In this document: one piece after another, positions 2,325 through 32,000 of the stretch | Layout of the letters: the number at the start of each line of letters is the position of its first letter | Position numbering within the stretch: position 1 is the stretch's first letter | From: Thermofilum adornatum | GTDB taxonomy: Archaea; Thermoproteota; Thermoprotei; Thermofilales; Thermofilaceae | DNA length: 32,000 bases | Direction of reading: 5' to 3' | Assembly (NCBI RefSeq): GCF_000446015.1 | Contig: NC_022093.1 | Location: forward strand, 1-32,000 | Program-made: the position numbers and the translations under genes | Notes under the pieces: generated by a model | Seen by the model: only the letters and a program-made list of their open reading frames with translations | Told to the model about the DNA's origin: nothing | Database searches by the model: none

Positions 2325-2337
2325 AATTTTTTTATTT
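2325..2337 (+). terminator. oligo-T tract after the oxidoreductase operon
   Basis: T7 run (2327-2333) about 10 nt after the beta-subunit stop, in the 14-nt gap before the convergent gene. Archaeal terminators are typically oligo-T runs. Confidence 0.35.
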
Positions 2338-2859
2338 GTATACAAGCCTATTTTCAACTATCTCGGCGCACTTGCTGAGCTGGTGCTCGACTACTTTTTT
2401 GCTTTCAAGTATGTGTAGGACTGTGAAGCCTCTAGCAAGAAAGTAGTCTGCAAGTATTTTCCTGTGGCACCTCCAGGGCATCCTCTCGCTACACAGGAGT
2501 GTTGCCGTCTTGCTTCTTGCTATTGATTCCACTGACTCGAGGTTGCTTTTAACGTCTTCCTTTAGGGTTATGTAGGTGGCGTAGGCCCTAAACCCCTCAG
2601 ACTCGAAGCACCAAGCAACACCGATGTCTTCCACGTCTACACCGAACTTCCTGTAGCCACCGAGAAGTGGAAACCAGTGGTACTCTATGTCCAGCTGTCT
2701 AAGGGCATATTCCAGGTTTTTCCCAGAATATTCGGGTAGCTTTCTAGATGAATTCCACCTCCTGACATCTATTACAGCTTTAATCGAGTATGTTTTAATG
2801 ATTTCAAGGAAGTCATCTAGGGCTCGGCCTCCGTAGCCGATGGTGTATAGGATCGTCAA
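2332..2859 (-). CDS. DUF488 family protein
   Basis: 'TIGYGGR' N-terminus and C-terminal 'LLCSERMPWRCHRKILADYF' (C.E....CHR) match the DUF488 signature as I recall it. Confidence 0.8.
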   Translation of the reverse strand: MTILYTIGYGGRALDDFLEIIKTYSIKAVIDVRRWNSSRKLPEYSGKNLEYALRQLDIEYHWFPLLGGYRKFGVDVEDIGVAWCFESEGFRAYATYITLKEDVKSNLESVESIARSKTATLLCSERMPWRCHRKILADYFLARGFTVLHILESKKVVEHQLSKCAEIVENRLVYK

Positions 2860-2896: not shown

Positions 2897-3949
2897 CTAA
2901 CTGTTTCGTCTAAGCCACTCTGCTATCTTTTGGGCAGCAATTTTCCCGCTCCTAATAGCTAAACCGATATTTGAGGGACCGTGCGCTACGTCTCCAGCTG
3001 CGAATAGGCCTCTGAGAGTAGTCATGTAGTTTTCGCTGATTTTTACCGAGCCATCGTGGTTGAGTTCTGCCCCTATTTGTCTTAAGCAAGGTGGTGGAGT
3101 GGGCTCCATTCCTATCGCTATGACGAGAGTATCTAGCTCGAGCTCGAACTCCGTTCCTGGAATTATCTCTGTTTTTTCACTTCTACTTGTGGTTGGCTTT
3201 ACTCTTGCCAGCCTTATTCCCCCTATGCTTGATTCCCCAATTATCTCTATGGGCTCAACATTTTCAATGAAGGTTACACCGAGGCTTTCCAAGTGCTTAA
3301 CCAAATGCCTTGCCGGTGCCAAGGTTTTCGGTCTTCTATATAAGATGACGGGCTCTGCGTTGTATTCTAGCGCCGCGAGTTCGGCTATATCTACAGCTGT
3401 TAAGCCTGCACCTATTATACCGACTTTTCCTCTAAGCTCTGCTGGAGCTCTATTGGAATATCCGAGAAGATAAGACATATAAGTGTGAATCCAACTTAGC
3501 GCATAGAATACGTTCCTCTTATCTTCTCCGCGGATATTAAGCTTTTTATCTCTCCATGTCCCAGTCGATACAAGGACAGCATTATAGTCCTCGAGCAACT
3601 CGGCCAGTCTGAGATTTCTCCCCACCTCTGTCTCAAGAAAGAAACCCACCCCCATTTTTTCCACATCCCTAATACTCTCAAAGACAGATTTCTTCGGCAA
3701 GCGAAACTCGGGAATTGCGAACACAAGCATTCCCCCTGGCTCGGGCATCTTGTCGAATATATCTACCCTGTAACCTACACATCTAAGGTTTGCCGCGGCA
3801 GAGAGACCCGCAGGACCAGCGCCTATCACAGCTACTTTTTTGTCTTCTTCTCCTTTAACAAAACCACACTGAGAGAACTTGATCTTCGAGAAACTTGTCA
3901 TATTTGTTTGTCCTTGCGAATCTATTTTCAAGTTTAAGTCTTTTCTCAT
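2897..3949 (-). CDS. FAD/NAD(P)-binding oxidoreductase, GltD/SudA-like (no N-terminal Fe-S domain)
   Basis: Two Rossmann loops ('VAVIGAGPAGLSAA', 'VGIIGAGLTAVD') and C-terminal 'LFAAGDVAHGPSN'. Met17 (nt 3901) is an equally plausible start. Confidence 0.75.
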   Translation of the reverse strand: MRKDLNLKIDSQGQTNMTSFSKIKFSQCGFVKGEEDKKVAVIGAGPAGLSAAANLRCVGYRVDIFDKMPEPGGMLVFAIPEFRLPKKSVFESIRDVEKMGVGFFLETEVGRNLRLAELLEDYNAVLVSTGTWRDKKLNIRGEDKRNVFYALSWIHTYMSYLLGYSNRAPAELRGKVGIIGAGLTAVDIAELAALEYNAEPVILYRRPKTLAPARHLVKHLESLGVTFIENVEPIEIIGESSIGGIRLARVKPTTSRSEKTEIIPGTEFELELDTLVIAIGMEPTPPPCLRQIGAELNHDGSVKISENYMTTLRGLFAAGDVAHGPSNIGLAIRSGKIAAQKIAEWLRRNS

Positions 3950-4102
3950 TTCGTGGGAACTATGCCATCACTCTACATAAGCATTCTCAATGATAAATTC
4001 AGCAGATATCCCATGAAAATTTGACAAAGCGTCATACATCTTGAACCTCGACCATTTCTACTCGCCACACAAATCTTCCGTTAAATCTGACCGACACCCT
4101 AT

Positions 4103-4522
4103 TTAGTAATCATTGTTTTCGTCAGAAATATATTCATCAATGTATCTTCGCCTCTTATAGAGCATAACAGCCGCTATGTGGGTACATATGTTTTTTCTGC
4201 GTGTCCACCCGAATGGCGCATTGTAGCAACTACACTCGTATTTGTCTCCCACTTGGGTGACAAGATAGTATGCCTTTTTGTCTCCAAGCTCAGGGACACC
4301 CTTGACTAGCCATGTATGTCTTGACTGTTCCTCCACTGTTGCGAGGAGGTAGCGTGTAACCGCTCTCTCCAGCCATTGCTCTTTGGGGAAAACTTGATAT
4401 AGCTGTCTTATTGCCTCACTGAGAGAGTCCGTCTTTGCTGTTTCTAGCGAATCCTTGACTAATTTCTCTGCCTGTCTAAGCGTCTCTCTGACTTCTTGTC
4501 TAGAGGGATCCCTTCTTCTCAT
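4103..4522 (-). CDS. SWIM zinc-finger protein
   Basis: 'YECSCYNAPFGWTRRKNICTHIAAV' fits CxCx13CxH, the SWIM zinc-chelating signature. The gene starts 9 nt after the upstream radical SAM stop. Confidence 0.7.
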   Translation of the reverse strand: MRRRDPSRQEVRETLRQAEKLVKDSLETAKTDSLSEAIRQLYQVFPKEQWLERAVTRYLLATVEEQSRHTWLVKGVPELGDKKAYYLVTQVGDKYECSCYNAPFGWTRRKNICTHIAAVMLYKRRRYIDEYISDENNDY

Positions 4523-4531
4523 GAGGCTCCC

Positions 4532-5383
4532 TCATAGGTATTGGGTAATCTTATTTTGGCGTGGTTTTTCTTCTTTGGGGAAGGCGGCTTCACACTCTAC
4601 AAAGTATTTTCTACACAAATCTCGGATCCTGTCTTCGACTGTGGTTATCCAAGTTGTGCTAGAGGACAACATGTTTGGAAACTTTTCGATGAGTGGCATC
4701 ATGGACTCCCTTATCCCTGGCTTTAGGTGGAGATAGTCATAGTAGACCTTGGAGCTTGTCTCTGCAGCTAGCCTAACTATTTCCTCGAGGTTTGCCCTTG
4801 TATCGTTTAAGCCACGGATAATTGGCCCAATAAATATCCATGTAGGTATTCCTGCTGTGCTGACCTCTCGTAGAGCCCTGGCGCGCTGATGTGGTGGCGG
4901 AGCGTTTGGCTCTATAAGTTTTGCGAGCTGGGGATCCAGCGTCGTTATGGTGAAGCCAACGTCTACATGGGGGATGTGGTTCTTCAATATGTCTATGTCC
5001 CTCGTGACCAATGGGGACTTTGTCTGCACGCTGACCTTGAAGCCGCTCTGCAGTAGGATTTGCAGGCCCCTCCTGGTGAGCCCCTCAGTGGCCTCGATTG
5101 GCTGGTAGGGGTCTGTAAGTGTTGACACGCCGACTGTTCCTCTGGGCTTCTTTTTTACTTCTTCACTGAGTACTTCGAGAATGTTCTCCTTTATGTAGAC
5201 TATTTTGCCCCAGTTCAGAGACACTTCATCGTACCTGGTGTATGCCCTAGCATAACAGTATATACAGCCATGAAGGCAACCCACGTATGGGTTATATGCA
5301 TAGTCGAGGTCGTAGAGTCCTGACCTGGAAAGGGCTGTCTTAACCTTTATCTTCTTATAGGTAACCTTGTCCACGCTGTCCAC
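4532..5383 (-). CDS. radical SAM protein, SplB/'DNA repair photolyase'-like (COG1533-type)
   Basis: 'NPYVGCLHGCIYCYARAY' carries the CxxxCxxC radical SAM cluster in the context typical of spore-photoproduct-lyase-like proteins. The C-terminus is 'QNKITQYL'. The gene starts 4 nt after the nre stop. Confidence 0.85.
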   Translation of the reverse strand: MDSVDKVTYKKIKVKTALSRSGLYDLDYAYNPYVGCLHGCIYCYARAYTRYDEVSLNWGKIVYIKENILEVLSEEVKKKPRGTVGVSTLTDPYQPIEATEGLTRRGLQILLQSGFKVSVQTKSPLVTRDIDILKNHIPHVDVGFTITTLDPQLAKLIEPNAPPPHQRARALREVSTAGIPTWIFIGPIIRGLNDTRANLEEIVRLAAETSSKVYYDYLHLKPGIRESMMPLIEKFPNMLSSSTTWITTVEDRIRDLCRKYFVECEAAFPKEEKPRQNKITQYL

Positions 5384-5387
5384 TTTT

Positions 5388-6626
5388 TCACCTCCCCTGT
5401 AAGGATCTCGTCAAGTAACTGAGTAGTGTCTCCTGCCTCGTGAGGTCCCTGATAAGCCTGGATTTTTCAAGCCAAACGTGAAGAGGTAGCCTGGTTGCTC
5501 TTCCAAGCCTCTCGAGAACCTCGCTTAACGAGTCGAATCTTTCGGGCGTTGTCCTGTAGAGCTGTCGAACATTCTCCCTTACAAACCAAACCCCTATGGG
5601 CGAGAAGAAGCCCTCATATATCTCCCTTATGAGTATAGCTGTCCCCTGCCTCTTTTCCCTAAGCATGTACTCGGCTGTTGCAAGCCTCGCAGCGTAGTAG
5701 CAACCTCCTAGACTGGCATACGTGGTTCTGCCCCTGTAGCCCTCATGGTCCCCTTCAACCTCTATTATGCTGGAGGGATTCCACATTGTGTGGGGGAACC
5801 AGGCCTCTATCCACTCGTAGCTCCATTCACGGGGCACAATTATCGCGATGAAGTTGTTGTCCTCGTGTCTCCACTGGAAAAACAAATAGCTCGAAAAGGT
5901 ATCATACTCCTTTATCTTCTCGATAAGCCTCTGAGAAATAGTCGAGTCGACGGCCGTTATAGACCACCTAGTTGGGACAAGCCTCCTCTGGAAGCCATAC
6001 CCAAGCGAGCCAGTGGAAAGCATTCTCTGGATCTGGCTAACAGGGACGCCCGACTCGTAGAGATACATGATTGCATCTGACGCCTTTATGTCGAGAGAGT
6101 AATACATCTTCTCGACTGGCCTGGGAAGCTTTGGCTCGCCGCTAACCCGTATCCTCTCCACGGGGCTTGCTGGGCCGAGGGGTGGAGAGAAAAGGTCCAA
6201 CAATGCTTTTAGGCTTGGCTTCCTGGAGAGATTCAGCTCTACCTCTACTGGTTCCCTAGAGATAGATGCAAGTCTAACCTCTTCTGGGACGTCTGCCCGT
6301 CGCACATCTACGCTCGTCTCTCCCCGTATCAATGAAAGCCTCATCCTAAGTATCTCTGAGAGAGGCTTCTCGAGCCATTTCTCCTGGGCCTCATAGAAAG
6401 ATGGGTCTCCGCCCGTAGCTGGGACACCGATGCTAAATCTTACCTTTGGATAGCCCTGCCTCCCAACAAACACTGTTGGCGGGGTCGGACCCTCAAGCTC
6501 GGTTGTTTCTGGAAGCCTGACGTCATTTAGCGCTTTCCAGTAGCTCATTAGGGGGCAGAAAGCCTTCCCGCACAGGTTTTTCGCCCCCCTACATTTGAGG
6601 CACAGAGCCGCGGCCCTCGAGGACAT
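5388..6626 (-). CDS. Nre family protein (archaeal DUF650/DUF651, putative DNA repair factor)
   Basis: N-terminal 'LCLKCRGAKNLCGKAFCPL' followed by 'VFVGRQGYPKV' matches the Nre N-terminal domain signature as I recall it. 'QETLLSYL' lies 7 residues from the C-terminus. Confidence 0.75.
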   Translation of the reverse strand: MSSRAAALCLKCRGAKNLCGKAFCPLMSYWKALNDVRLPETTELEGPTPPTVFVGRQGYPKVRFSIGVPATGGDPSFYEAQEKWLEKPLSEILRMRLSLIRGETSVDVRRADVPEEVRLASISREPVEVELNLSRKPSLKALLDLFSPPLGPASPVERIRVSGEPKLPRPVEKMYYSLDIKASDAIMYLYESGVPVSQIQRMLSTGSLGYGFQRRLVPTRWSITAVDSTISQRLIEKIKEYDTFSSYLFFQWRHEDNNFIAIIVPREWSYEWIEAWFPHTMWNPSSIIEVEGDHEGYRGRTTYASLGGCYYAARLATAEYMLREKRQGTAILIREIYEGFFSPIGVWFVRENVRQLYRTTPERFDSLSEVLERLGRATRLPLHVWLEKSRLIRDLTRQETLLSYLTRSLQGR

Positions 6627-6727
6627 CTACTTCTAACCTTATGTTTATTGTTGGGTGTTTTAAATAAATCTACAAGTAGACTGAAAGTAAACAAATATTT
6701 GACTAAAAAGTAAAACATACATTAGAG

Positions 6728-7870
6728 ATGCCCTACAGCAAACTTTGGACAGCAGAGAAAACATGTAAACTATGCGGGAAAAAATCCAAGCTGATATCTG
6801 AAGCCATAGGAGTATGCGTGGACTGCCTGAGAAGCAACCCCGAAGCCCTAAAGATAGCAATGGAGACACATTACTCTGAGAGAAAAAAGTGGGGCTTGCC
6901 ACCTGAGCCTCCAAGGGCACCTGGAGGCATAAAATGTGGGCTATGCGACCTCGACTGTGTAATCCCAGACGGCGGTCTTGGCTACTGCGGGCTCGTAAAG
7001 AACGTTGGGGGCAGACTTGTCCACCTTTCTGGACAGCCATACACAGCCCTGCTAGAGTACTACTACGACCCCCACCCAACAAACTGTGTAGCCTACTGGT
7101 TCTGCCCTGGGGCAACTGGTACAGGTTATCCCAAGTACGCCTTGAGAAGAAGCGGGGAACACGGATACATGAACCTTGCAGTTTTCTACGGCGCCTGCAA
7201 CCATAACTGTCTCTTCTGCCAGAACTGGTTCTACAGGGAACTCTTAGCCAAGAAGGAGCCAAAGATAGGCACCGAGCAACTCCTCAAGGCCGCCTTAAAC
7301 CCCAGGGTAACATGTGTCTGCTTTTTCGGCGGAGACCCTGGGCCACAAGTTCTTCACGCCATTTATTTCTCTAGGAAGTTGCTAGAGGAGTCTAAAAACA
7401 CGATAATGAGGATATGTTGGGAATCCAACGGGCACTTCTCACCAAGAATTCTACCCACAGTTGCCAGGCTTTCCCTCGAGACAGGGGGCATAGTCAAGTT
7501 CGACCTGAAGGCATGGAGCCCACAAGTATACAAGGCGTTAACCGGGGTAGACGTTGGAAACCTCTACAGGAACACGGAATACGTGGCAAAGCTTTCAGGG
7601 CAGAGGCCCGAGATCCCCCTGTTCACTGCCAGCGTCCTACTAGTGCCAGGCTACATAGACGAGACCGAGATAAGAGGCATAACGAGCTTCCTCGCAAAGC
7701 TTTCGCCAGAGATACCGCTGAGCCTCCTCGCATTCTACCCTAGATACCTAATGGACGACCTGCCACCCACTAGCAAAAGACATGCATACGAGGCTCTAAG
7801 AATCGCAAAGGAAGAGGGGCTAGAAAAGGTGTGGATAGGCAACTCGTGGCTCCTTGGAAACCATTATTAA
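6728..7870 (+). CDS. radical SAM protein, pyruvate-formate-lyase-activase-like, with an N-terminal Cys4 ribbon
   Basis: 'YGACNHNCLFCQNW' CxxxCxxC motif, preceded by 'CKLCGK...CVDCLR' and 'CGLCDLDCVIPDGGLGYCG' cysteine clusters. Confidence 0.8.
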   Translation: MPYSKLWTAEKTCKLCGKKSKLISEAIGVCVDCLRSNPEALKIAMETHYSERKKWGLPPEPPRAPGGIKCGLCDLDCVIPDGGLGYCGLVKNVGGRLVHLSGQPYTALLEYYYDPHPTNCVAYWFCPGATGTGYPKYALRRSGEHGYMNLAVFYGACNHNCLFCQNWFYRELLAKKEPKIGTEQLLKAALNPRVTCVCFFGGDPGPQVLHAIYFSRKLLEESKNTIMRICWESNGHFSPRILPTVARLSLETGGIVKFDLKAWSPQVYKALTGVDVGNLYRNTEYVAKLSGQRPEIPLFTASVLLVPGYIDETEIRGITSFLAKLSPEIPLSLLAFYPRYLMDDLPPTSKRHAYEALRIAKEEGLEKVWIGNSWLLGNHY

Positions 7871-7880
7871 TATGTAAGCG

Positions 7881-8114
7881 TTAAGTGAACGCGAGCTCCT
7901 TATATAGAGACTCCTTAAGCTTATGGGTATCAGTAAAGTCGTCCACGTCTACTTCTATCGAGTCGAATAGCTCAGTTAGCTTAATAGTCTCGATGGGAAT
8001 AAGCCTAATCTCGTTGCCGGTAGCTTCCACGAAAAACACTCTTGAATTAAATTTCTCTCTGATGTCTGCCGGAACCACTATTCGACCATGCTTGTCCATT
8101 TTCACGATTTCCAT
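7881..8114 (-). CDS. AbrB/SpoVT-type antitoxin-like DNA-binding protein (no adjacent toxin)
   Basis: 'MDKHGRIVVPADIREKF' is the swapped-hairpin AbrB/MazE motif. No PIN or other toxin ORF lies downstream. Confidence 0.75.
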   Translation of the reverse strand: MEIVKMDKHGRIVVPADIREKFNSRVFFVEATGNEIRLIPIETIKLTELFDSIEVDVDDFTDTHKLKESLYKELAFT

Positions 8115-8323
8115 GTGACTCTACACATTATTTCCTAAATCTACAATTAATATTTTAAACTCACTTTCTTGGGCTCAGCCCAGGATGCATTCTCACAGAA
8201 AGGCTACTGGAAAAATTTTTCCTTAAGCTTAACATACTGTTTCGTTCTCCTACATCTGTAAACAAGAGACTAAGGACAGTCCCAATAAATACGTCATTAA
8301 TCTCACGCATAGGGTTTAGCATC

Positions 8324-8788
8324 TTAGAATTGCTGGCAGATCTCTTCCCAAAAAGCTACACCAAGTTTCCTCAGCTCGTTCTCGTATGGTGCCATCTCTG
8401 TTTCTCTCTTCAAGAATAGAGGAGTTGCCTGTCTATGCATGCCAACAGCGATGACATAAATGTCAGAGAGAGCCATCTTAAACTTTTTCCTAAGCTCTCC
8501 AGCCAACACGGCTACTTCTCTGCCTATTGTTTCTAGCTCCACGCCCGGCAAAGCGAGCAACCACCTAACTAGCTCTAGAGCTTCCCTATTTGCGTCCTGA
8601 ACACCAGCCTCACTATACATTCTGGAAGCCACATATATGACCTCGCTTATAGTGACAGGAGACACGTATGCCCTTACCGCGCCTGCCCGCAAGAAATCAA
8701 AAAGCTTGTCTACTTGGAATGGCGAAGCCTCATCGACATACTCAGCAATCACACTAGTATCCAGAACGAAGACCCTCCTCGAGTTCAA
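8324..8788 (-). CDS. vapC: PIN-domain ribonuclease (VapC toxin)
   Basis: 'VFVLDTSVI', 'SEVIYV' and 'LSDIYVIA' supply PIN acidic residues. The listed ORF reaches 8845, but that would overlap vapB by 92 nt. A TTG at 8788 (MNSRRVFVLDTS) is a more plausible start; the exact start is uncertain. Confidence 0.8.
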   Translation of the reverse strand: MNSRRVFVLDTSVIAEYVDEASPFQVDKLFDFLRAGAVRAYVSPVTISEVIYVASRMYSEAGVQDANREALELVRWLLALPGVELETIGREVAVLAGELRKKFKMALSDIYVIAVGMHRQATPLFLKRETEMAPYENELRKLGVAFWEEICQQF

Positions 8789-8996
8789 GTTCCTCCCTCT
8801 TAGCTTCCCTGACAATTTCCTGCGCCTTACCGCCAAGCTTGACACGTAGAGGCCTCAAAGGCTTAATAACCATCGTGTCATCGATTAGCTCGAGCGTAAG
8901 CAGATCCCCTTCTTTAATGCCTAAAACCTCCCTCACCTCTACTGGTATAACAATAACCCCCTTCTTACTAACACGTATAATCCTACCACTCATCAT
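8754..8996 (-). CDS. vapB: AbrB/SpoVT-type antitoxin (VapB)
   Basis: 'RVSKKGVIVIPVEVREVLGIKEGDLLTLE' AbrB-fold motif, directly upstream of and overlapping the PIN gene. Confidence 0.8.
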   Translation of the reverse strand: MMSGRIIRVSKKGVIVIPVEVREVLGIKEGDLLTLELIDDTMVIKPLRPLRVKLGGKAQEIVREAKREELELEEGLRSGY

Positions 8997-9155: not shown

Positions 9156-11138
9156 TTAATGTGAAGCAGGTATATTGACGTTTACAAGCGAGGAGATCAC
9201 TGTCTCGTAGGCCCTTACAAGTAGCTTTTCATAGGCGTCGTAGTCTGGGAGAATAGTCCCAGTGCCCGGCACCCTTACGCGGAGGTGGGGGCTCGACTTT
9301 GGATGTTTTGCTAACACAAAACATACCTTTGACCCCTTCCCGGACACGCCTGCCTGCTGGGCTGCAACAACGTGCATGGCCTTGACCTTGTACTTTTCCC
9401 TTCTAAGAGTCTTCTCTATCAAGAGCTCCTCCACCGGGACCAGCCCGCTACGTAGCCTCTCGACCTCCCTCTTCAGAAGCTCCTCGGCCGCTGACAAGGC
9501 CCCGTCTACGCCGGACTTCTCGAGCGTGCTGAAGACTGTCTCCACGAGCCTTGCCTGGAAGCTCCTGACGAATGGCGGGTAGTCGCTCCTAGCCGCCTCG
9601 ACGCCCTTAAACACGTATTCGCCCTCAGCCGTGACGCCGAAGTACCTCTTTACGGGTGACGCACGCGTGGTCTTCGCCTCTGGGAAAGCTATAAACCTGA
9701 ACAGCTTGTCGACCTTTATCGGCATACCGTACTTCTCGGCTATCTCTCCTGCAAGCTCCTCGTAGTCGCTCCGCGAGGCGCCGTCCCTATAGACAAAGAC
9801 GCTGTCCGTGTCGCCGTAGATGACCGTGTAGCCCTTCTCCCTCAGGAGCCCGTAGACCCCCAGCATGACTCTCCTGGCGAGCCTGTTTATCCACTCGAAC
9901 GTCAACGGGTTCCCGAGCCTGTTATAATTGTTACCACTGTACCCATAGCTAGAGACCAGTATCATCTTGAGCTCCTTCTGCCTCTGGTCTGCAAACCTCT
10001 TTGCGTCTCCAGAGAGCTCCCGGGCCATATGCTTAAACCTGAGCCTACGCTCAAGCAACGGCTCAACAACGTCCACGAGTATCCCCCTAGGCTCCCTGGC
10101 GACCCCGCCGAGCGAGACAGTCTCATAGCTGATATTGTACCTAACAATCAAGTTGGGAAACATAGACTCAAAGTCTAGCTCCGCGACGTTCCCATATATC
10201 CCCGTTACCGGCTGGTATATGAGCCCTCCCCTGTCGCCCCTGTGGAGCTCAAGCATTGTCCTCACGTGGACGTTCCTATGCCTAGCCCTGGGCACAGCGT
10301 AGCCCCTCCTAAGCAACAGGTAGACCTGCCTAGCGTCAATCAGCCTGCCATAGCTTGTCATACCCGCCAGGGTCGGAGACAGCCCCGTAGCCCTACACCT
10401 CTCCTCGAGGCCAGCGAGCCCTATGCCGTCCAGCAGACCCCTCTCGACGAATATCCTCCCCTCGAGGACGCCGTCTCCCCTCCCAAGCCTAAACCAGCCG
10501 TGGCGCCTCCTAACCCCAATAGCTAGCTTGCGAAGCTCCTTCACAGGCATATTCACAGCTACAACGTCGGGGTCAAGCTCCTTGAGCACGGCGTCGAGGC
10601 CTTCAAGGATCCTAGACTCAGACCCCTCAAAGACTTTTTCGCCCCCGTTACTCCTAATGACAGCCTTAGAGAGAAAGCCCCCGCGCACGTGTAGGTCGAG
10701 ACTCACCGTCACGAGTGGGAGCGGCTCGACCCTGTCCTCGCCCTCCACGAAGAGCCAGCCGCTACGCCTATACGACCTGAGAGCCACGATTCCCACTTCA
10801 GCGAATAGCTTCTGGACGACGTTCACGTCTGAGTCGTAGCTAGTAAAACCGGCGCCCTCTACGACCTTCAGAGCCTTTTGCAGGAGCCTGCGGGACCCGT
10901 GGGAGACCCTTAGAAATGCCCCAGTCTTCCCGCCTACAAGCCTCCTCTCAACCTCCTCGACACTGAAGCCCTGATCCCACAGGGAGGCGAGGAAGCCAAG
11001 AGCGCTACTCTCTACCAGGAAGTAGTCCTCGAAGCCCCTGCGGAGAGCCTCTACGCCGCCGTCAAGCCCCCTGAGCCACAGCCTGGCCTCTCCACGCGAG
11101 ACAGAGGCGTCAACCACTACTGATTCGCTCGACCTCAT
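9156..11138 (-). CDS. family B DNA polymerase, short form with degenerate exonuclease motifs (PolB2/Dpo2-like)
   Basis: Polymerase motifs: A 'LDFESMFPNLI', B 'KMILVSSYGYSG', C 'VIYGDTDSVFV', plus 'VKRYFG'. At the Exo I position the sequence reads 'VSLDLHV' instead of FDIE-type, and no clear Exo II/III motif is seen. The 660-aa length is shorter than replicative PolB enzymes. Confidence 0.85.
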   Translation of the reverse strand: MRSSESVVVDASVSRGEARLWLRGLDGGVEALRRGFEDYFLVESSALGFLASLWDQGFSVEEVERRLVGGKTGAFLRVSHGSRRLLQKALKVVEGAGFTSYDSDVNVVQKLFAEVGIVALRSYRRSGWLFVEGEDRVEPLPLVTVSLDLHVRGGFLSKAVIRSNGGEKVFEGSESRILEGLDAVLKELDPDVVAVNMPVKELRKLAIGVRRRHGWFRLGRGDGVLEGRIFVERGLLDGIGLAGLEERCRATGLSPTLAGMTSYGRLIDARQVYLLLRRGYAVPRARHRNVHVRTMLELHRGDRGGLIYQPVTGIYGNVAELDFESMFPNLIVRYNISYETVSLGGVAREPRGILVDVVEPLLERRLRFKHMARELSGDAKRFADQRQKELKMILVSSYGYSGNNYNRLGNPLTFEWINRLARRVMLGVYGLLREKGYTVIYGDTDSVFVYRDGASRSDYEELAGEIAEKYGMPIKVDKLFRFIAFPEAKTTRASPVKRYFGVTAEGEYVFKGVEAARSDYPPFVRSFQARLVETVFSTLEKSGVDGALSAAEELLKREVERLRSGLVPVEELLIEKTLRREKYKVKAMHVVAAQQAGVSGKGSKVCFVLAKHPKSSPHLRVRVPGTGTILPDYDAYEKLLVRAYETVISSLVNVNIPASH

Positions 11139-11400
11139 CCTCTAGGTCCCTCAGCCTGCGCTCTAGCTCCCTGAGCCTCCATTCGAGGTCAAGCACAGAA
11201 ACGAGGAGGAGCGAGCCGAGGAGGTACGGGTTAGGATAGTTTGTCACGGCGCCCAGCTCCTCGCCCCAGGCCTTCTTGACGTAGATGTATGCCTCCCTCC
11301 TCTCCCTCCTCAAGAGCTCGACAAACTCGGCCTCGAGCTCGTTGAGCAACTGCAGGTACTTCTCCCTGACGCTCGGGGTAGCCCTGCCCACTAGAACCAC
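11110..11400 (-). CDS. hypothetical coiled-coil protein
   Basis: GTG start overlaps the upstream stop (GTGGTTCTAG), and the 3' end overlaps the polymerase start by 29 nt. Heptad-like E/R/L-rich segments ('LEWRLRELERRLRDLEDEVERI'). No recognised domain. Confidence 0.5.
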   Translation of the reverse strand: MVLVGRATPSVREKYLQLLNELEAEFVELLRRERREAYIYVKKAWGEELGAVTNYPNPYLLGSLLLVSVLDLEWRLRELERRLRDLEDEVERISSG

Positions 11401-12086
11401 CCCTCCACGTCCCTCAGTCCCCAGCCAGTCCTCTCAGCGTAGACAACCATGGGGGTAGCCAGAGGGCCCTTCTCGACAGTTATCCTAGTATACCTCTTTC
11501 CAACGTCCTCGAGCCTAGCTATAACGCTGGAAACATGCCTAGCATACACGGGGACCTCTGGAAGAGGCCTCCTAGAAAACCTAGACCTCCCCGCAAATAG
11601 CACGACTACCGCGCCCCTCTCCAGCAGCCTCTGGAGCCTCCCCAGAAACATCACGAGCCTGTCGTAGCTCTTCGGGCTAAACAGCTCGGATAAATGGGTA
11701 ACAGCTATGAGCCCCACGCCCCTCTTCAGTGCCTCTTCCACAATCAAGTCAACAGAGCCCACCTGTCCAACGCCGTAGACATTGGCTACGTGTATCCTCG
11801 AGAGCCCCTCCTCCGGATCCACGCCCCGCCACATCAGGGCCTCCGACAAAGCGTACGTGTCTATAGACCTCCCCTCATGGTAGTCCCTCATGTTGACGAC
11901 GAGCGGCGGCAAGCCCCCGGAGAGGGCTGAGGCAAGAAGGGTGTAGAGCATCTTTCCCCTAGAATCCTCGTCACCATAAAACGTGGCCACAGAGCCGGGC
12001 ACAAGCCCGCCCACAAGCCTGTCTAGTCCCGAGAGGCCCGTGGACAGCCTGGGAAGCTCTAGGAGGCTCCTCGCATTCATCAACAT
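11391..12086 (-). CDS. RecA/RadA-paralog (KaiC/aRadC-like) protein with degenerate Walker motifs
   Basis: 'STGLSGLDRLVGGLVPGSVATFYG' matches the RadA/KaiC N-terminal core. The P-loop position reads 'GDEDSRGKM' (one extra residue, T/S replaced by M). The Walker B position reads 'GLIAVTHLS' (no Asp). The start is taken at Met30 (12086) because a TATA-like box sits about 35 nt upstream; the listed ORF starts at 12173. Confidence 0.7.
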   Translation of the reverse strand: MLMNARSLLELPRLSTGLSGLDRLVGGLVPGSVATFYGDEDSRGKMLYTLLASALSGGLPPLVVNMRDYHEGRSIDTYALSEALMWRGVDPEEGLSRIHVANVYGVGQVGSVDLIVEEALKRGVGLIAVTHLSELFSPKSYDRLVMFLGRLQRLLERGAVVVLFAGRSRFSRRPLPEVPVYARHVSSVIARLEDVGKRYTRITVEKGPLATPMVVYAERTGWGLRDVEGWF

Positions 12087-12114
12087 GGATACCACAGGCA
12101 GTTGTGCGAGAAAA

Positions 12115-12128
12115 CCCCTTATAAACAC
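12115..12128 (-). promoter_or_regulatory. TATA-like box for the RecA-like/PolB operon
   Basis: The minus strand reads 'GTGTTTATAAGGGG', centred about 35 nt upstream of the ATG at 12086. This spacing fits an archaeal TATA-to-TSS distance plus a short leader. Confidence 0.4.
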
Positions 12129-12283
12129 TGGAGACACTCCTGCATAGGGGGGATAACGCCGAAAGTAAAACATTTAAACACACGCCACGGCGCGTAGCCC
12201 AGCAAAAAGACGTTAAAAAAGAGATGCGGGTCATATATGAAAAGAGATAAAGCATTCTCACGTATCAGTGTCCAATTATTTCT

Positions 12284-31243: not shown

Positions 31244-31657
31244 TTAGCTTATGAGGATGGTTTCTATGCCTAGATTAGTTGCTACTCTTGCCTGAGCAGC
31301 GTCGCTTGTCAATAGTTTGCCGTATTTTTCTGCCTGTGCTATGTACAAGGAGTCATAAACTGTCAGACCGTGTTGTAGGGCGATATGTAGGGCCCTCGGG
31401 AGATATATACGTTCCTCCTCGAGGACTATTACGCGGGTCTCCGCTAGTCTCCCTACAAGGCTGTAGAGCTCGTGGGCGAGGCTCGCCGGCATCATTTTCC
31501 TGAGGTAGGCATGTTTCCAGAGAGCATTAGCGACTTCTTTTAAAACGTGGTCTACAGAGTATAGCGGGGAAACGTGCCTAAGGGTCTCTGAGACTTTTTC
31601 CCAGCCCTCCTCATGCAAAACATACTTAACCAAGAGCGAGGCGTCAATTACTGTCAC
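31244..31657 (-). CDS. vapC: PIN-domain ribonuclease (VapC toxin)
   Basis: 'MTVIDASLL', 'LKEVANAL', 'VYDSLYIAQA' and 'LLTSD' supply the four PIN acidic positions. Confidence 0.8.
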   Translation of the reverse strand: MTVIDASLLVKYVLHEEGWEKVSETLRHVSPLYSVDHVLKEVANALWKHAYLRKMMPASLAHELYSLVGRLAETRVIVLEEERIYLPRALHIALQHGLTVYDSLYIAQAEKYGKLLTSDAAQARVATNLGIETILIS

Positions 31658-31871
31658 GGTCCTCCCTCACATAACTGGCAGCCGTGCCCCTGGGGACGGT
31701 GGGTAGCTGGTTTATGAGCTCCTCAAGCCTTGACAGAGTATTTTCCCTCTCTGCCTCGAGTATCTTGTTTTCGATGAATCTTCTTATCTCCTCGCTCCAG
31801 TTTATCTTGTCTCGGTACTTCTGCATTTTTTCCTTGAGCTCTCTGGGAACCCTTACCGATACAACGCTCAT
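31644..31871 (-). CDS. vapB: VapB-type antitoxin
   Basis: 'MSVVSVRVPRELKEKMQKY...WSEEIRRFIE' is a typical archaeal VapB N-terminus. It overlaps the PIN gene by 14 nt. The start at 31871 is preceded by the TATA-like 'TACTTAAATG' about 27 nt upstream; the listed ORF starts at 31958. Confidence 0.65.
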   Translation of the reverse strand: MSVVSVRVPRELKEKMQKYRDKINWSEEIRRFIENKILEAERENTLSRLEELINQLPTVPRGTAASYVREDRDSN

Positions 31872-32000
31872 TGCCGTCGTGTAATAAATGTTTGTCTTAC
31901 ATTTAAGTATTACGAGCCTGTATGCAAGAGGGGGGCTAATAGTTAAATTGGTTTCCATCTTTTATAGAGGGGTAACCATGCAGGAGCCCGTGCGTGTCGA

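Follow-up and report, generated by a model that had tools for sequence, protein, structure and literature searches.

The Nre/SplB-like radical SAM operon of Thermofilum adornatum, with PIP-like C-terminal tails and a SWIM gene added in its own lineage

What is done by three genes that lie almost end to end on the minus strand of Thermofilum adornatum, and do their products work as one unit on DNA? The genes were analysed within the window, i.e. the whole stretch formed by the first 32,000 nucleotides (nt) of contig NC_022093.1, and encode a protein of the Nre family, a radical S-adenosylmethionine (SAM) enzyme and a small SWIM-type zinc-finger protein, respectively. In a preliminary description made from the sequence alone, they had been taken as a module for the reversal or processing of DNA lesions by radical chemistry, tethered to the PCNA clamp by PCNA-interacting peptide (PIP) motifs at the C-termini of the first two proteins. 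The locus is best explained, with a probability of roughly 0.6, as a copy of the conserved archaeal operon of Nre and SplB-like radical SAM genes, whose products would act as a DNA-damage repair pair on the PCNA clamp and which was extended by the SWIM gene in a Thermofilaceae-related lineage. The three genes and the signals ahead of them are as follows.

5388-6626, minus strand: Nre-family gene (412 amino acids (aa); domains Nre_N and Nre_C; N-terminal Cys4 metal site)
4532-5383, minus strand: radical SAM gene of COG1533, or 'SPL-family' (283 aa; GTG start)
4103-4522, minus strand: small stand-alone SWIM-type zinc-finger gene (139 aa; ATG start)
6658-6668, minus strand: TATA-box-like element TTTATTTAAAA, about 37 nt 5' of the Nre ATG, as read from the DNA
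5388-5395, minus strand: Shine-Dalgarno-like sequence GGAGGTGA, 4 nt ahead of the radical SAM GTG and overlapping the Nre stop codon
4527-4533, minus strand: Shine-Dalgarno-like sequence GAGGGAG, 4 nt ahead of the SWIM ATG and overlapping the radical SAM stop codon

The intergenic gaps were 4 nt between the Nre and radical SAM genes (5384-5387) and 9 nt between the radical SAM and SWIM genes (4523-4531), by which the spacing previously taken as the sign of one transcript was borne out, and both internal genes were found to have Shine-Dalgarno-like sites. The element TTTATTTAAAA falls in a 101-nt intergenic region common to the Nre gene and a divergent gene, and it is the putative promoter of the Nre gene, from which all three genes would be co-transcribed. 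The TATA-like element and the two Shine-Dalgarno-like sites, all of them read from the DNA, fit with one polycistronic transcript. The three-gene order was kept in loci whose SWIM proteins are 96%, 71% and 59% identical to the window copy, with the genes overlapping or at most 9 nt apart. The closest named relatives belong to Thermofilum and Infirmifilum (57-63% identity), and near-identical contigs occur in hot-spring metagenomes (e.g. L090).

An Nre/SplB-like gene pair of archaea was reportedly described by Giroux and MacNeill in 2016. For the present estimate of how far the pair is conserved, genomes were scanned with the Nre alignment at one genome per species, and 80 Nre loci were obtained, 73 of which had enough downstream DNA. 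In 47 of these 73 loci the radical SAM gene, read from the same strand, stood directly 3' of Nre, mostly at gaps of -4 to +35 nt and usually with a 4-nt overlap. Paired loci were found in the Thermoproteota (Thermofilaceae, Desulfurococcales, Sulfolobales and Vulcanisaeta) and elsewhere in Archaeoglobi, Methanoperedens, Methanomethylophilaceae, Thermoplasmataceae (Thermoplasmatota), Jordarchaeia and Nanoclepta; the two genes were mostly non-adjacent in Bathyarchaeia, Pyrobaculum, Ignisphaera and Thermococci. The comparison of Nre neighbourhoods that had been proposed as a check therefore came out differently for the two neighbours, the radical SAM gene being co-localised (47/73) and the SWIM gene occurring in 0/80 Nre loci.

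The C-termini of the encoded proteins were searched with the canonical PIP pattern Qxx[LIM]xx[FYW][FYWL], the relaxed pattern [LIMV]xx[FYW] and the stricter relaxed pattern [LIMV]xx[FYW][FYWLIMV]. The motifs of the Nre and radical SAM proteins are as follows.

5412-5435, minus strand: PIP box QETLLSYL near the C-terminus of the Nre protein (residues 398-405, with 7 more residues behind it)
4535-4558, minus strand: PIP-like motif QNKITQYL, with which the radical SAM protein ends (residues 276-283)

Both motifs stood as they had been described: the Nre protein, the C-terminal sequence of which is ...RQETLLSYLTRSLQGR, has QETLLSYL at residues 398-405 in agreement with Qxx[LIM]xx[FY][FYL], and the radical SAM protein ends exactly with QNKITQYL, with its stop codon directly after the motif. 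Two canonical PIPs in three adjacent genes are not expected by chance, because the canonical Q-type PIP was found in the last 15 residues in 4/734 (0.5%) of the other genes of related loci. Among the Nre orthologues the position was kept in the form Q/x-x-x-[IL]-x-x-[YWF]-[LFVI] (alignment A1); in their last 15 residues the canonical PIP was found in 30/120 (against 0.5% of background genes) and the core without the glutamine in 80/120 (against 13% of background genes).

For the radical SAM orthologues, a tail of at least 8 residues past the conserved C...F was present in 99 out of 121. The relaxed pattern was found in 93 of the 99 tails (17.8 expected when each tail was shuffled) and the stricter relaxed pattern in 64 (3.3 expected), although this enrichment over shuffling overstates the independence of the tails, which are mutually related. 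The hydrophobic position was occupied by L, I and V in 73, 20 and 4 tails, respectively, and the aromatic position by F, Y and W in 58, 35 and 4 tails, respectively, the motif lying mostly 1-3 residues from the C-terminus behind a variable basic linker. The tail was present in the orthologues of Sulfolobales and Thermofilaceae and absent in those of Archaeoglobi. As to the conservation of the C-terminal PIPs, the hydrophobic/aromatic core without the glutamine was kept, and the full pattern was confined to 30/120 Nre and 5/120 radical SAM orthologues. The alignments thus support a conserved C-terminal PIP-like tail, in the relaxed form, that belongs to the radical SAM enzyme itself across the Thermoproteota orthologues.

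When the motifs were recorded in 46 adjacent pairs, 17 pairs had one on both proteins, 23 on the Nre protein alone, 5 on the radical SAM protein alone and 1 on neither, these counts being approximate owing to a few misparsed pairs. In Wolframiiraptor and Infirmifilum the Nre tail QTRLEV... is without an aromatic residue and the radical SAM partner keeps LLEYF or IIDYF. More broadly, the Nre C-terminus was without the PIP aromatics (e.g. QTRLEVRSL) at four loci (L012, L013, L014 and L060, from Wolframiiraptor, Infirmifilum and one Desulfurococcaceae), at which the adjoining radical SAM protein keeps LLEYF, IIDYF or SLEEYS; the reverse was seen in Archaeoglobi. Such complementary retention of the tails suggests that the Nre and radical SAM proteins work as a unit, of which at least one member must reach the same receptor.

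The Nre protein was matched at full length by both Pfam domains, Nre_N (1-270/270, 2.7e-96, 323 bits) and Nre_C (1-110/110, 7e-37, 126 bits), far over the Pfam cutoffs, and is accordingly a member of the Nre family. Its Cys4 site is formed by C9, C12, C19 and C24, all four of which were invariant in 24 orthologues (alignment A1). With the haloarchaeal NreA equivalog model NF041387 of NCBIfam it scored 235 bits (cutoff 700), which makes it a homologue and not an equivalog. The AlphaFold2 (AF2) model of the protein had a predicted local distance difference test score (pLDDT) of 83.5 and a predicted template modelling score of 0.85. No significant match was found for this model among the PDB folds, and the search of PDB sequences with the Nre profile gave no usable match. 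The weak local matches to OB-fold single-stranded DNA-binding proteins and to GyrB/MutL-type domains (GyrB-transducer) were judged unreliable. As a side observation on the model, the protein may combine folds in a way not yet represented in the PDB. Nothing further on the mechanism of Nre was found in the literature up to 2025. Nearly all archaea have Nre, for which a repair phenotype is known from genetics but, to our knowledge, no biochemical activity.

The radical SAM protein was matched by Pfam Radical_SAM from residue 30 (1e-13, 52.3 bits; cutoff 29.5), which places it in the superfamily PF04055, and it carries the following motif.

5255-5278, minus strand: radical SAM cluster motif C36-x3-C40-x2-C43 (GCLHGCIYC), with C36, C40 and C43 invariant (alignment A3)

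Homologues of the protein were found in large numbers (7501 at E<=1e-20). The nearest NCBIfam models were PA0069 (1e-46, 159.6 bits; cutoff 360) and Rv2578c (1e-37, 129.4 bits; cutoff 430), followed by 'mobile pair B' (1e-34), all of them below their cutoffs, and the PDB searches with the radical SAM sequence and with its profile gave no usable match. A match was also recorded to phrog_13321, a phrog without known function. Judged by its sequence, the protein is a member of an archaeal subfamily related to PA0069 and Rv2578c and known at NCBI as 'SPL family radical SAM protein'. Of the bacterial relatives, Rv2578c is in the LexA regulon (PMC3381160) and SplB-like radical SAM genes are found in SOS-linked operons (PMC3765255).

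The third protein was described as a stand-alone SWIM finger of the form CSCx13CTH; the motif was present, with all four ligands invariant in 33 homologues, and a PIP-like C-terminus, RYIDEYISDENNDY, had been overlooked. The two features of the protein are as follows.

4178-4234, minus strand: SWIM motif C97-S-C99-x13-C113-T-H115, with invariant ligands in 33 homologues (alignment A2)
4127-4147, minus strand: PIP-like tail of the SWIM protein, RYIDEYI at residues 126-132

The Pfam SWIM domain (PF04434) was matched at residues 86-123 with 7.5e-4 and 19.4 bits, just short of the gathering score of 19.6, and one homologue (P0252) scored 17.8 bits. The AF2 model (pLDDT 89) has an N-terminal three-helix region, a beta-sheet and the CxC...CxH motif, and no significant match to it was found in the PDB (best ZSWIM8, E=0.9). 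Ends like that of the window protein, such as QRLIEEYL, QKKIKEYV, QRLLAPYL and QRRLSEWI, were found in small SWIM relatives: past the last helix, the relaxed pattern occurred in 28 of 60 small family members (12.4 expected) and the stricter form in 21 of 60 (3.6 expected), and the canonical Q-type PIP was found in 3 of 73 small SWIM proteins.

Only three SWIM homologues were found by the word-indexed search (96%, 71% and 59% identity), all of them directly after the Nre and radical SAM genes, and the exhaustive HMMER search gave 124 relatives at E<=1e-3, 38 of which also passed E<=1e-10. Metagenomes were then scanned with the alignment of the SWIM relatives, and among the 80 loci obtained the Nre and radical SAM genes were present at six, all with SWIM copies at least 59% identical to that of the window. 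The distant homologues have other surroundings. At 23 loci they stand behind a protein of about 290 aa without a Pfam match, and at 8 loci the homologue is followed by a protein of about 300 aa with weak similarity to Ogg/HhH (8-oxoguanine glycosylase; TIGR00588, 1.5e-6); these are L102, L103 (e.g. 3832-4737) and six others. A MoaA/SPASM-like radical SAM gene was seen near a SWIM homologue at 9 loci. Forms of about 195 aa have as neighbours multi-pass membrane proteins, a type IV secretion system (T4SS)-pilin-like protein and a HerA/VirB4-like ATPase. The loci of these longer forms (L135-L169, e.g. L138, L142 and L161, and L127 1362-3794) encode tails such as RTRRYIVELL, and their context in hot-spring Thermoproteota suggests a DNA transfer or import apparatus (Ced/Ted-like) or a conjugative element. 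The long relatives (640-1100 aa) are XPD/DinG-type superfamily 2 (SF2) helicases (Helicase_C_2, DEAD_2) in which the SWIM module is N-terminal; such fusions are P0289, P0294, P0302, P0311, P0322 and P0339, and several of them have inteins bearing LAGLIDADG endonucleases.

Under the favoured explanation, the Nre protein would dock on PCNA by its C-terminal PIP box, as is expected here by homology with the NreA of other archaea, and the radical SAM enzyme would act on a DNA lesion through a 5'-deoxyadenosyl radical derived from its [4Fe-4S] cluster and SAM. As has been guessed in the literature, the lesion may be an adduct of the intrastrand or interstrand crosslink type. The radical SAM enzyme of Thermoproteota would carry a clamp-docking tail of its own, and both partners could therefore share one clamp and perhaps bind to different subunits of it, the crenarchaeal PCNA being a heterotrimer. 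The SWIM protein would be an accessory factor that binds DNA or the lesion and has joined the operon in this clade, and it may be tethered to the clamp too. What we infer beyond the genes, their order and their motifs is the binding of the radical SAM and SWIM tails to PCNA, the physical cooperation of the proteins and the substrate. A bolder version, in which the PCNA ring of Thermoproteota would serve as a tool-belt, with the Nre, radical SAM and lineage-specific SWIM proteins each held on a different subunit via its own tail, the radical SAM repair enzyme delivered by the clamp and the family of tailed SWIM proteins being an unrecognised class of small clients of PCNA with further service to glycosylases and to DNA-import or conjugation-like systems, is regarded as quite unlikely.

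Several observations weigh against the favoured explanation. No SWIM-family open reading frame (ORF) was found in any of the 80 genome-derived Nre loci with a broad family hidden Markov model and the CxC..CxH pattern, and SWIM homologues of at most 53% identity never adjoin an Nre or radical SAM gene. Because of this absence and of the other neighbourhoods of the distant homologues, the link could be incidental, and the SWIM protein would then be a functionally unrelated passenger from a family of shifting contexts, mobile or DNA-transfer elements included (some homologues lie by HerA/VirB4-like ATPase and T4SS-pilin-like proteins), that is merely co-transcribed with a real unit of two genes. 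A search across archaea for a third gene that regularly follows the radical SAM gene likewise gave none; the next gene varies by locus and is often convergent. This alternative is possible but somewhat unlikely, as the order was retained at 59-96% SWIM identity with an overlap or a 9-nt gap and a Shine-Dalgarno-like site, the other contexts of the family are also related to DNA (XPD/DinG fusions and the Ogg-like neighbour) and the SWIM tail resembles the tails of both operon partners. The last resemblance is itself tempered by the lack of a flexible linker: since the tail is drawn by AF2 as an extension of the last helix (pLDDT 55-81), it may be structural and not for docking. Whatever the role of the protein, the absence of a SWIM-family ORF from all 80 Nre loci makes the three-gene composition a lineage-specific variant and not a conserved system, and the module of three genes, as had been claimed, is not upheld outside the narrow clade of the window.

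The tail of the radical SAM enzyme is open to a different reading as well. The canonical glutamine of the strict PIP is present in 4% of the radical SAM tails (the 5/120 given above), 22 of 121 orthologues are without the tail (including Archaeoglobi and many Desulfurococcaceae), 13% of unrelated C-termini show the relaxed pattern and no PIP on the SplB-like protein is named in the review of the Nre/SplB-like pair (PMC4929162); the hydrophobic-x-x-aromatic tail might then not bind the clamp at all and might instead bind Nre, a single-strand-binding or repair protein, or fold back on the enzyme. This is judged unlikely, because the pattern and its terminal position are those of the validated crenarchaeal FEN1 PIP and of the Nre PIP, the motif is preceded by a variable low-complexity linker as is usual for short docking motifs, and the aromatic residue is kept by the radical SAM protein where the Nre tail loses its own, which fits a shared receptor. 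As to the chemistry, TIGR04070 (spore photoproduct lyase, SPL) was matched with 1e-4 and 21.4 bits (cutoff 400), so that membership of that family fails, and no SPL chain was found at E<=10 when PDB sequences were searched with the profile of the radical SAM protein. The enzyme is, on these scores, only remotely related to true spore photoproduct lyase. The AF2 model of the Nre protein, for its part, offers no hint of catalysis. With a resemblance to SPL that may mislead, with no spore photoproduct known in archaea and with an Nre partner that has an invariant Cys4 site and no recognisable catalytic fold, it could be supposed that no lesion is reversed by a radical and that the enzyme modifies a nucleic acid or protein, or matures a cofactor or metal site for Nre. 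Such a role appears very unlikely in view of the genetic DNA-repair phenotype of Nre, the repeated ties of the Rv2578c, PA0069 and SplB-like families to the SOS response and repair operons, and the clamp-type tails, which point to DNA as the site of action.

Other genes of the window were considered as companions of Nre (the divergent radical SAM gene and the GltD-like, DUF488, family-B polymerase and PIN genes) and were rejected, as they co-occur with it only in the window's own clade. A defence or phage identity of the three operon genes was also rejected; in PADLOC, the Nre and SWIM proteins had no match and that of the radical SAM protein was marginal (2e-4). The scans of the window with Rfam and for tRNAs gave no match. 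The neighbouring features are as follows.

6728-7870, plus strand: second radical SAM gene (380 aa), divergent from Nre, weakly AmmeMemoRadiSam-like (1e-18), kept only in close relatives
2897-3949, minus strand: GltD-like oxidoreductase gene, downstream of the operon
2332-2859, minus strand: DUF488 gene, following the GltD-like gene
9156-12173, minus strand: stretch with the gene of a short DNA polymerase of family B (660 aa; Pfam DNA_pol_B, 8.6e-30; in NCBIfam, PRK05761.1-2 with 232 bits, below cutoff)
11110-11400 and 11391-12173: two overlapping ORFs without a Pfam match, upstream of the polymerase gene
7881-8996, minus strand: toxin-antitoxin-like pairs
31244-31958, minus strand: overlapping pair of small genes at the right end of the window, toxin-antitoxin-like

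The polymerase stretch is GC-rich (0.59, against about 0.47 elsewhere) and lies about 2.5 kb from the Nre operon, with synteny only in the clade of the window (L001, L002, L090 and L095). In PADLOC, the DUF488 protein was matched by two candidate defence modules, PDC-M45B (1e-20) and PDC-M19A, and it is not near Nre outside the window's clade; in one SWIM lineage (P0123; L005 2623-3111), a DUF488 gene is directly after the SWIM gene. Within 7881-8996, the PIN-domain gene at 8324-8845 (Pfam 5.6e-12) overlaps an upstream ORF of 80 aa at 8754-8996 that is AbrB/SpoVT-like by eye, and the latter is resembled by the ORF of 77 aa at 7881-8114.

For the favoured explanation of a clamp-bound repair pair, the literature provides the starting point. 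Nre proteins bearing a PIP motif at the C-terminus and frequently a Cys4 site at the N-terminus were described by MacNeill 2016, together with the adjacency or overlap of nre and an SplB-like gene in many archaea and the suggestion that the SplB-like enzyme repairs intrastrand or interstrand crosslinks (PMC4929162). In Haloferax, the repair of mitomycin C damage by NreA is PIP-dependent and proceeds together with UvrABC, PCNA binding and PIP-dependent repair being known for the NreA of A. fulgidus and Haloferax volcanii only (PMC4929162). The Nre PIP, the Nre/SplB-like operon and the repair hypothesis are therefore already known, and the claim that the module is uncharacterised has to be divided: the link of Nre to the radical SAM gene and the idea of crosslink repair by radicals are in that review, and the radical SAM tail goes beyond it. 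The core repair inference of the preliminary description is reasonable but not new, and its interpretation as a whole is supported in part. What appears to be new in comparison with the review is the clamp-type tail that the radical SAM enzyme has in Thermoproteota, together with the complementary retention of the tails and a SWIM family with like tails. For the link of Nre to an SplB-like enzyme, a matter of question since 2016, the clamp-type tail conserved on the radical SAM partner provides a testable model in which both proteins act together on PCNA, and the small SWIM proteins of like tails are candidate additions to the non-core PCNA interactome, of which little is known. Should PCNA binding fail, the locus would be one more copy of a known operon, with an extra gene specific to its lineage.

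Compared with the published Nre/SplB-like pair, the locus likewise has the domains Nre_N and Nre_C, the Cys4 site, the C-terminal PIP and an SplB-like gene directly downstream; it differs in the PIP-like tail of the radical SAM protein, as no PIP on the SplB-like protein is mentioned in the review, and in the SWIM gene, which is not part of the published pair and is added as a third gene in the lineage of the window. The Nre protein of the window differs from haloarchaeal NreA by having the N-terminal Cys4 site. In NreB, the SplB-linked paralogue, the PIP was described as less clear (PMC4929162); the adjacency of NreB to an SplB-like gene is matched in the window by the 4-nt gap, but the canonical PIP of the window Nre is a poor fit with NreB, a comparison that concerns this 32-kb window only.

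The tail of the radical SAM enzyme is best compared with the PIP of Sulfolobus (Sso) FEN1, QTGLDRWF-COOH, which is structurally validated and at the extreme C-terminus (PMC1636371). The radical SAM motif is likewise at the C-terminus, with a hydrophobic residue and then an aromatic pair, polar or acidic residues standing between them, and orthologue tails such as TLDKYF, GLDEFA, KLDEFI, RITDFT and LLEYL resemble QTGLDRWF; most radical SAM tails, unlike that of FEN1, are without the glutamine, and their binding to PCNA is putative. With the SplB, PA0069 and Rv2578c families, the enzyme has in common the radical SAM core CxxxCxxC, and the bacterial relatives are likewise in a repair or SOS context. 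It is shorter (283 aa) than these relatives and has the archaeal-type putative clamp-docking tail, and its operon partner is Nre, whereas those of the bacterial COG1533 relatives are ImuB-C, DUF4130 or UDG. The SWIM protein, finally, shares the signature CxCxnCxH and its invariant ligands with the SWIM domain PF04434, and the same module of about 100 residues heads XPD/DinG-type SF2 helicases in distant homologues, from which the window protein differs by standing alone at 139 aa, with an extra N-terminal helical region and a PIP-like tail.

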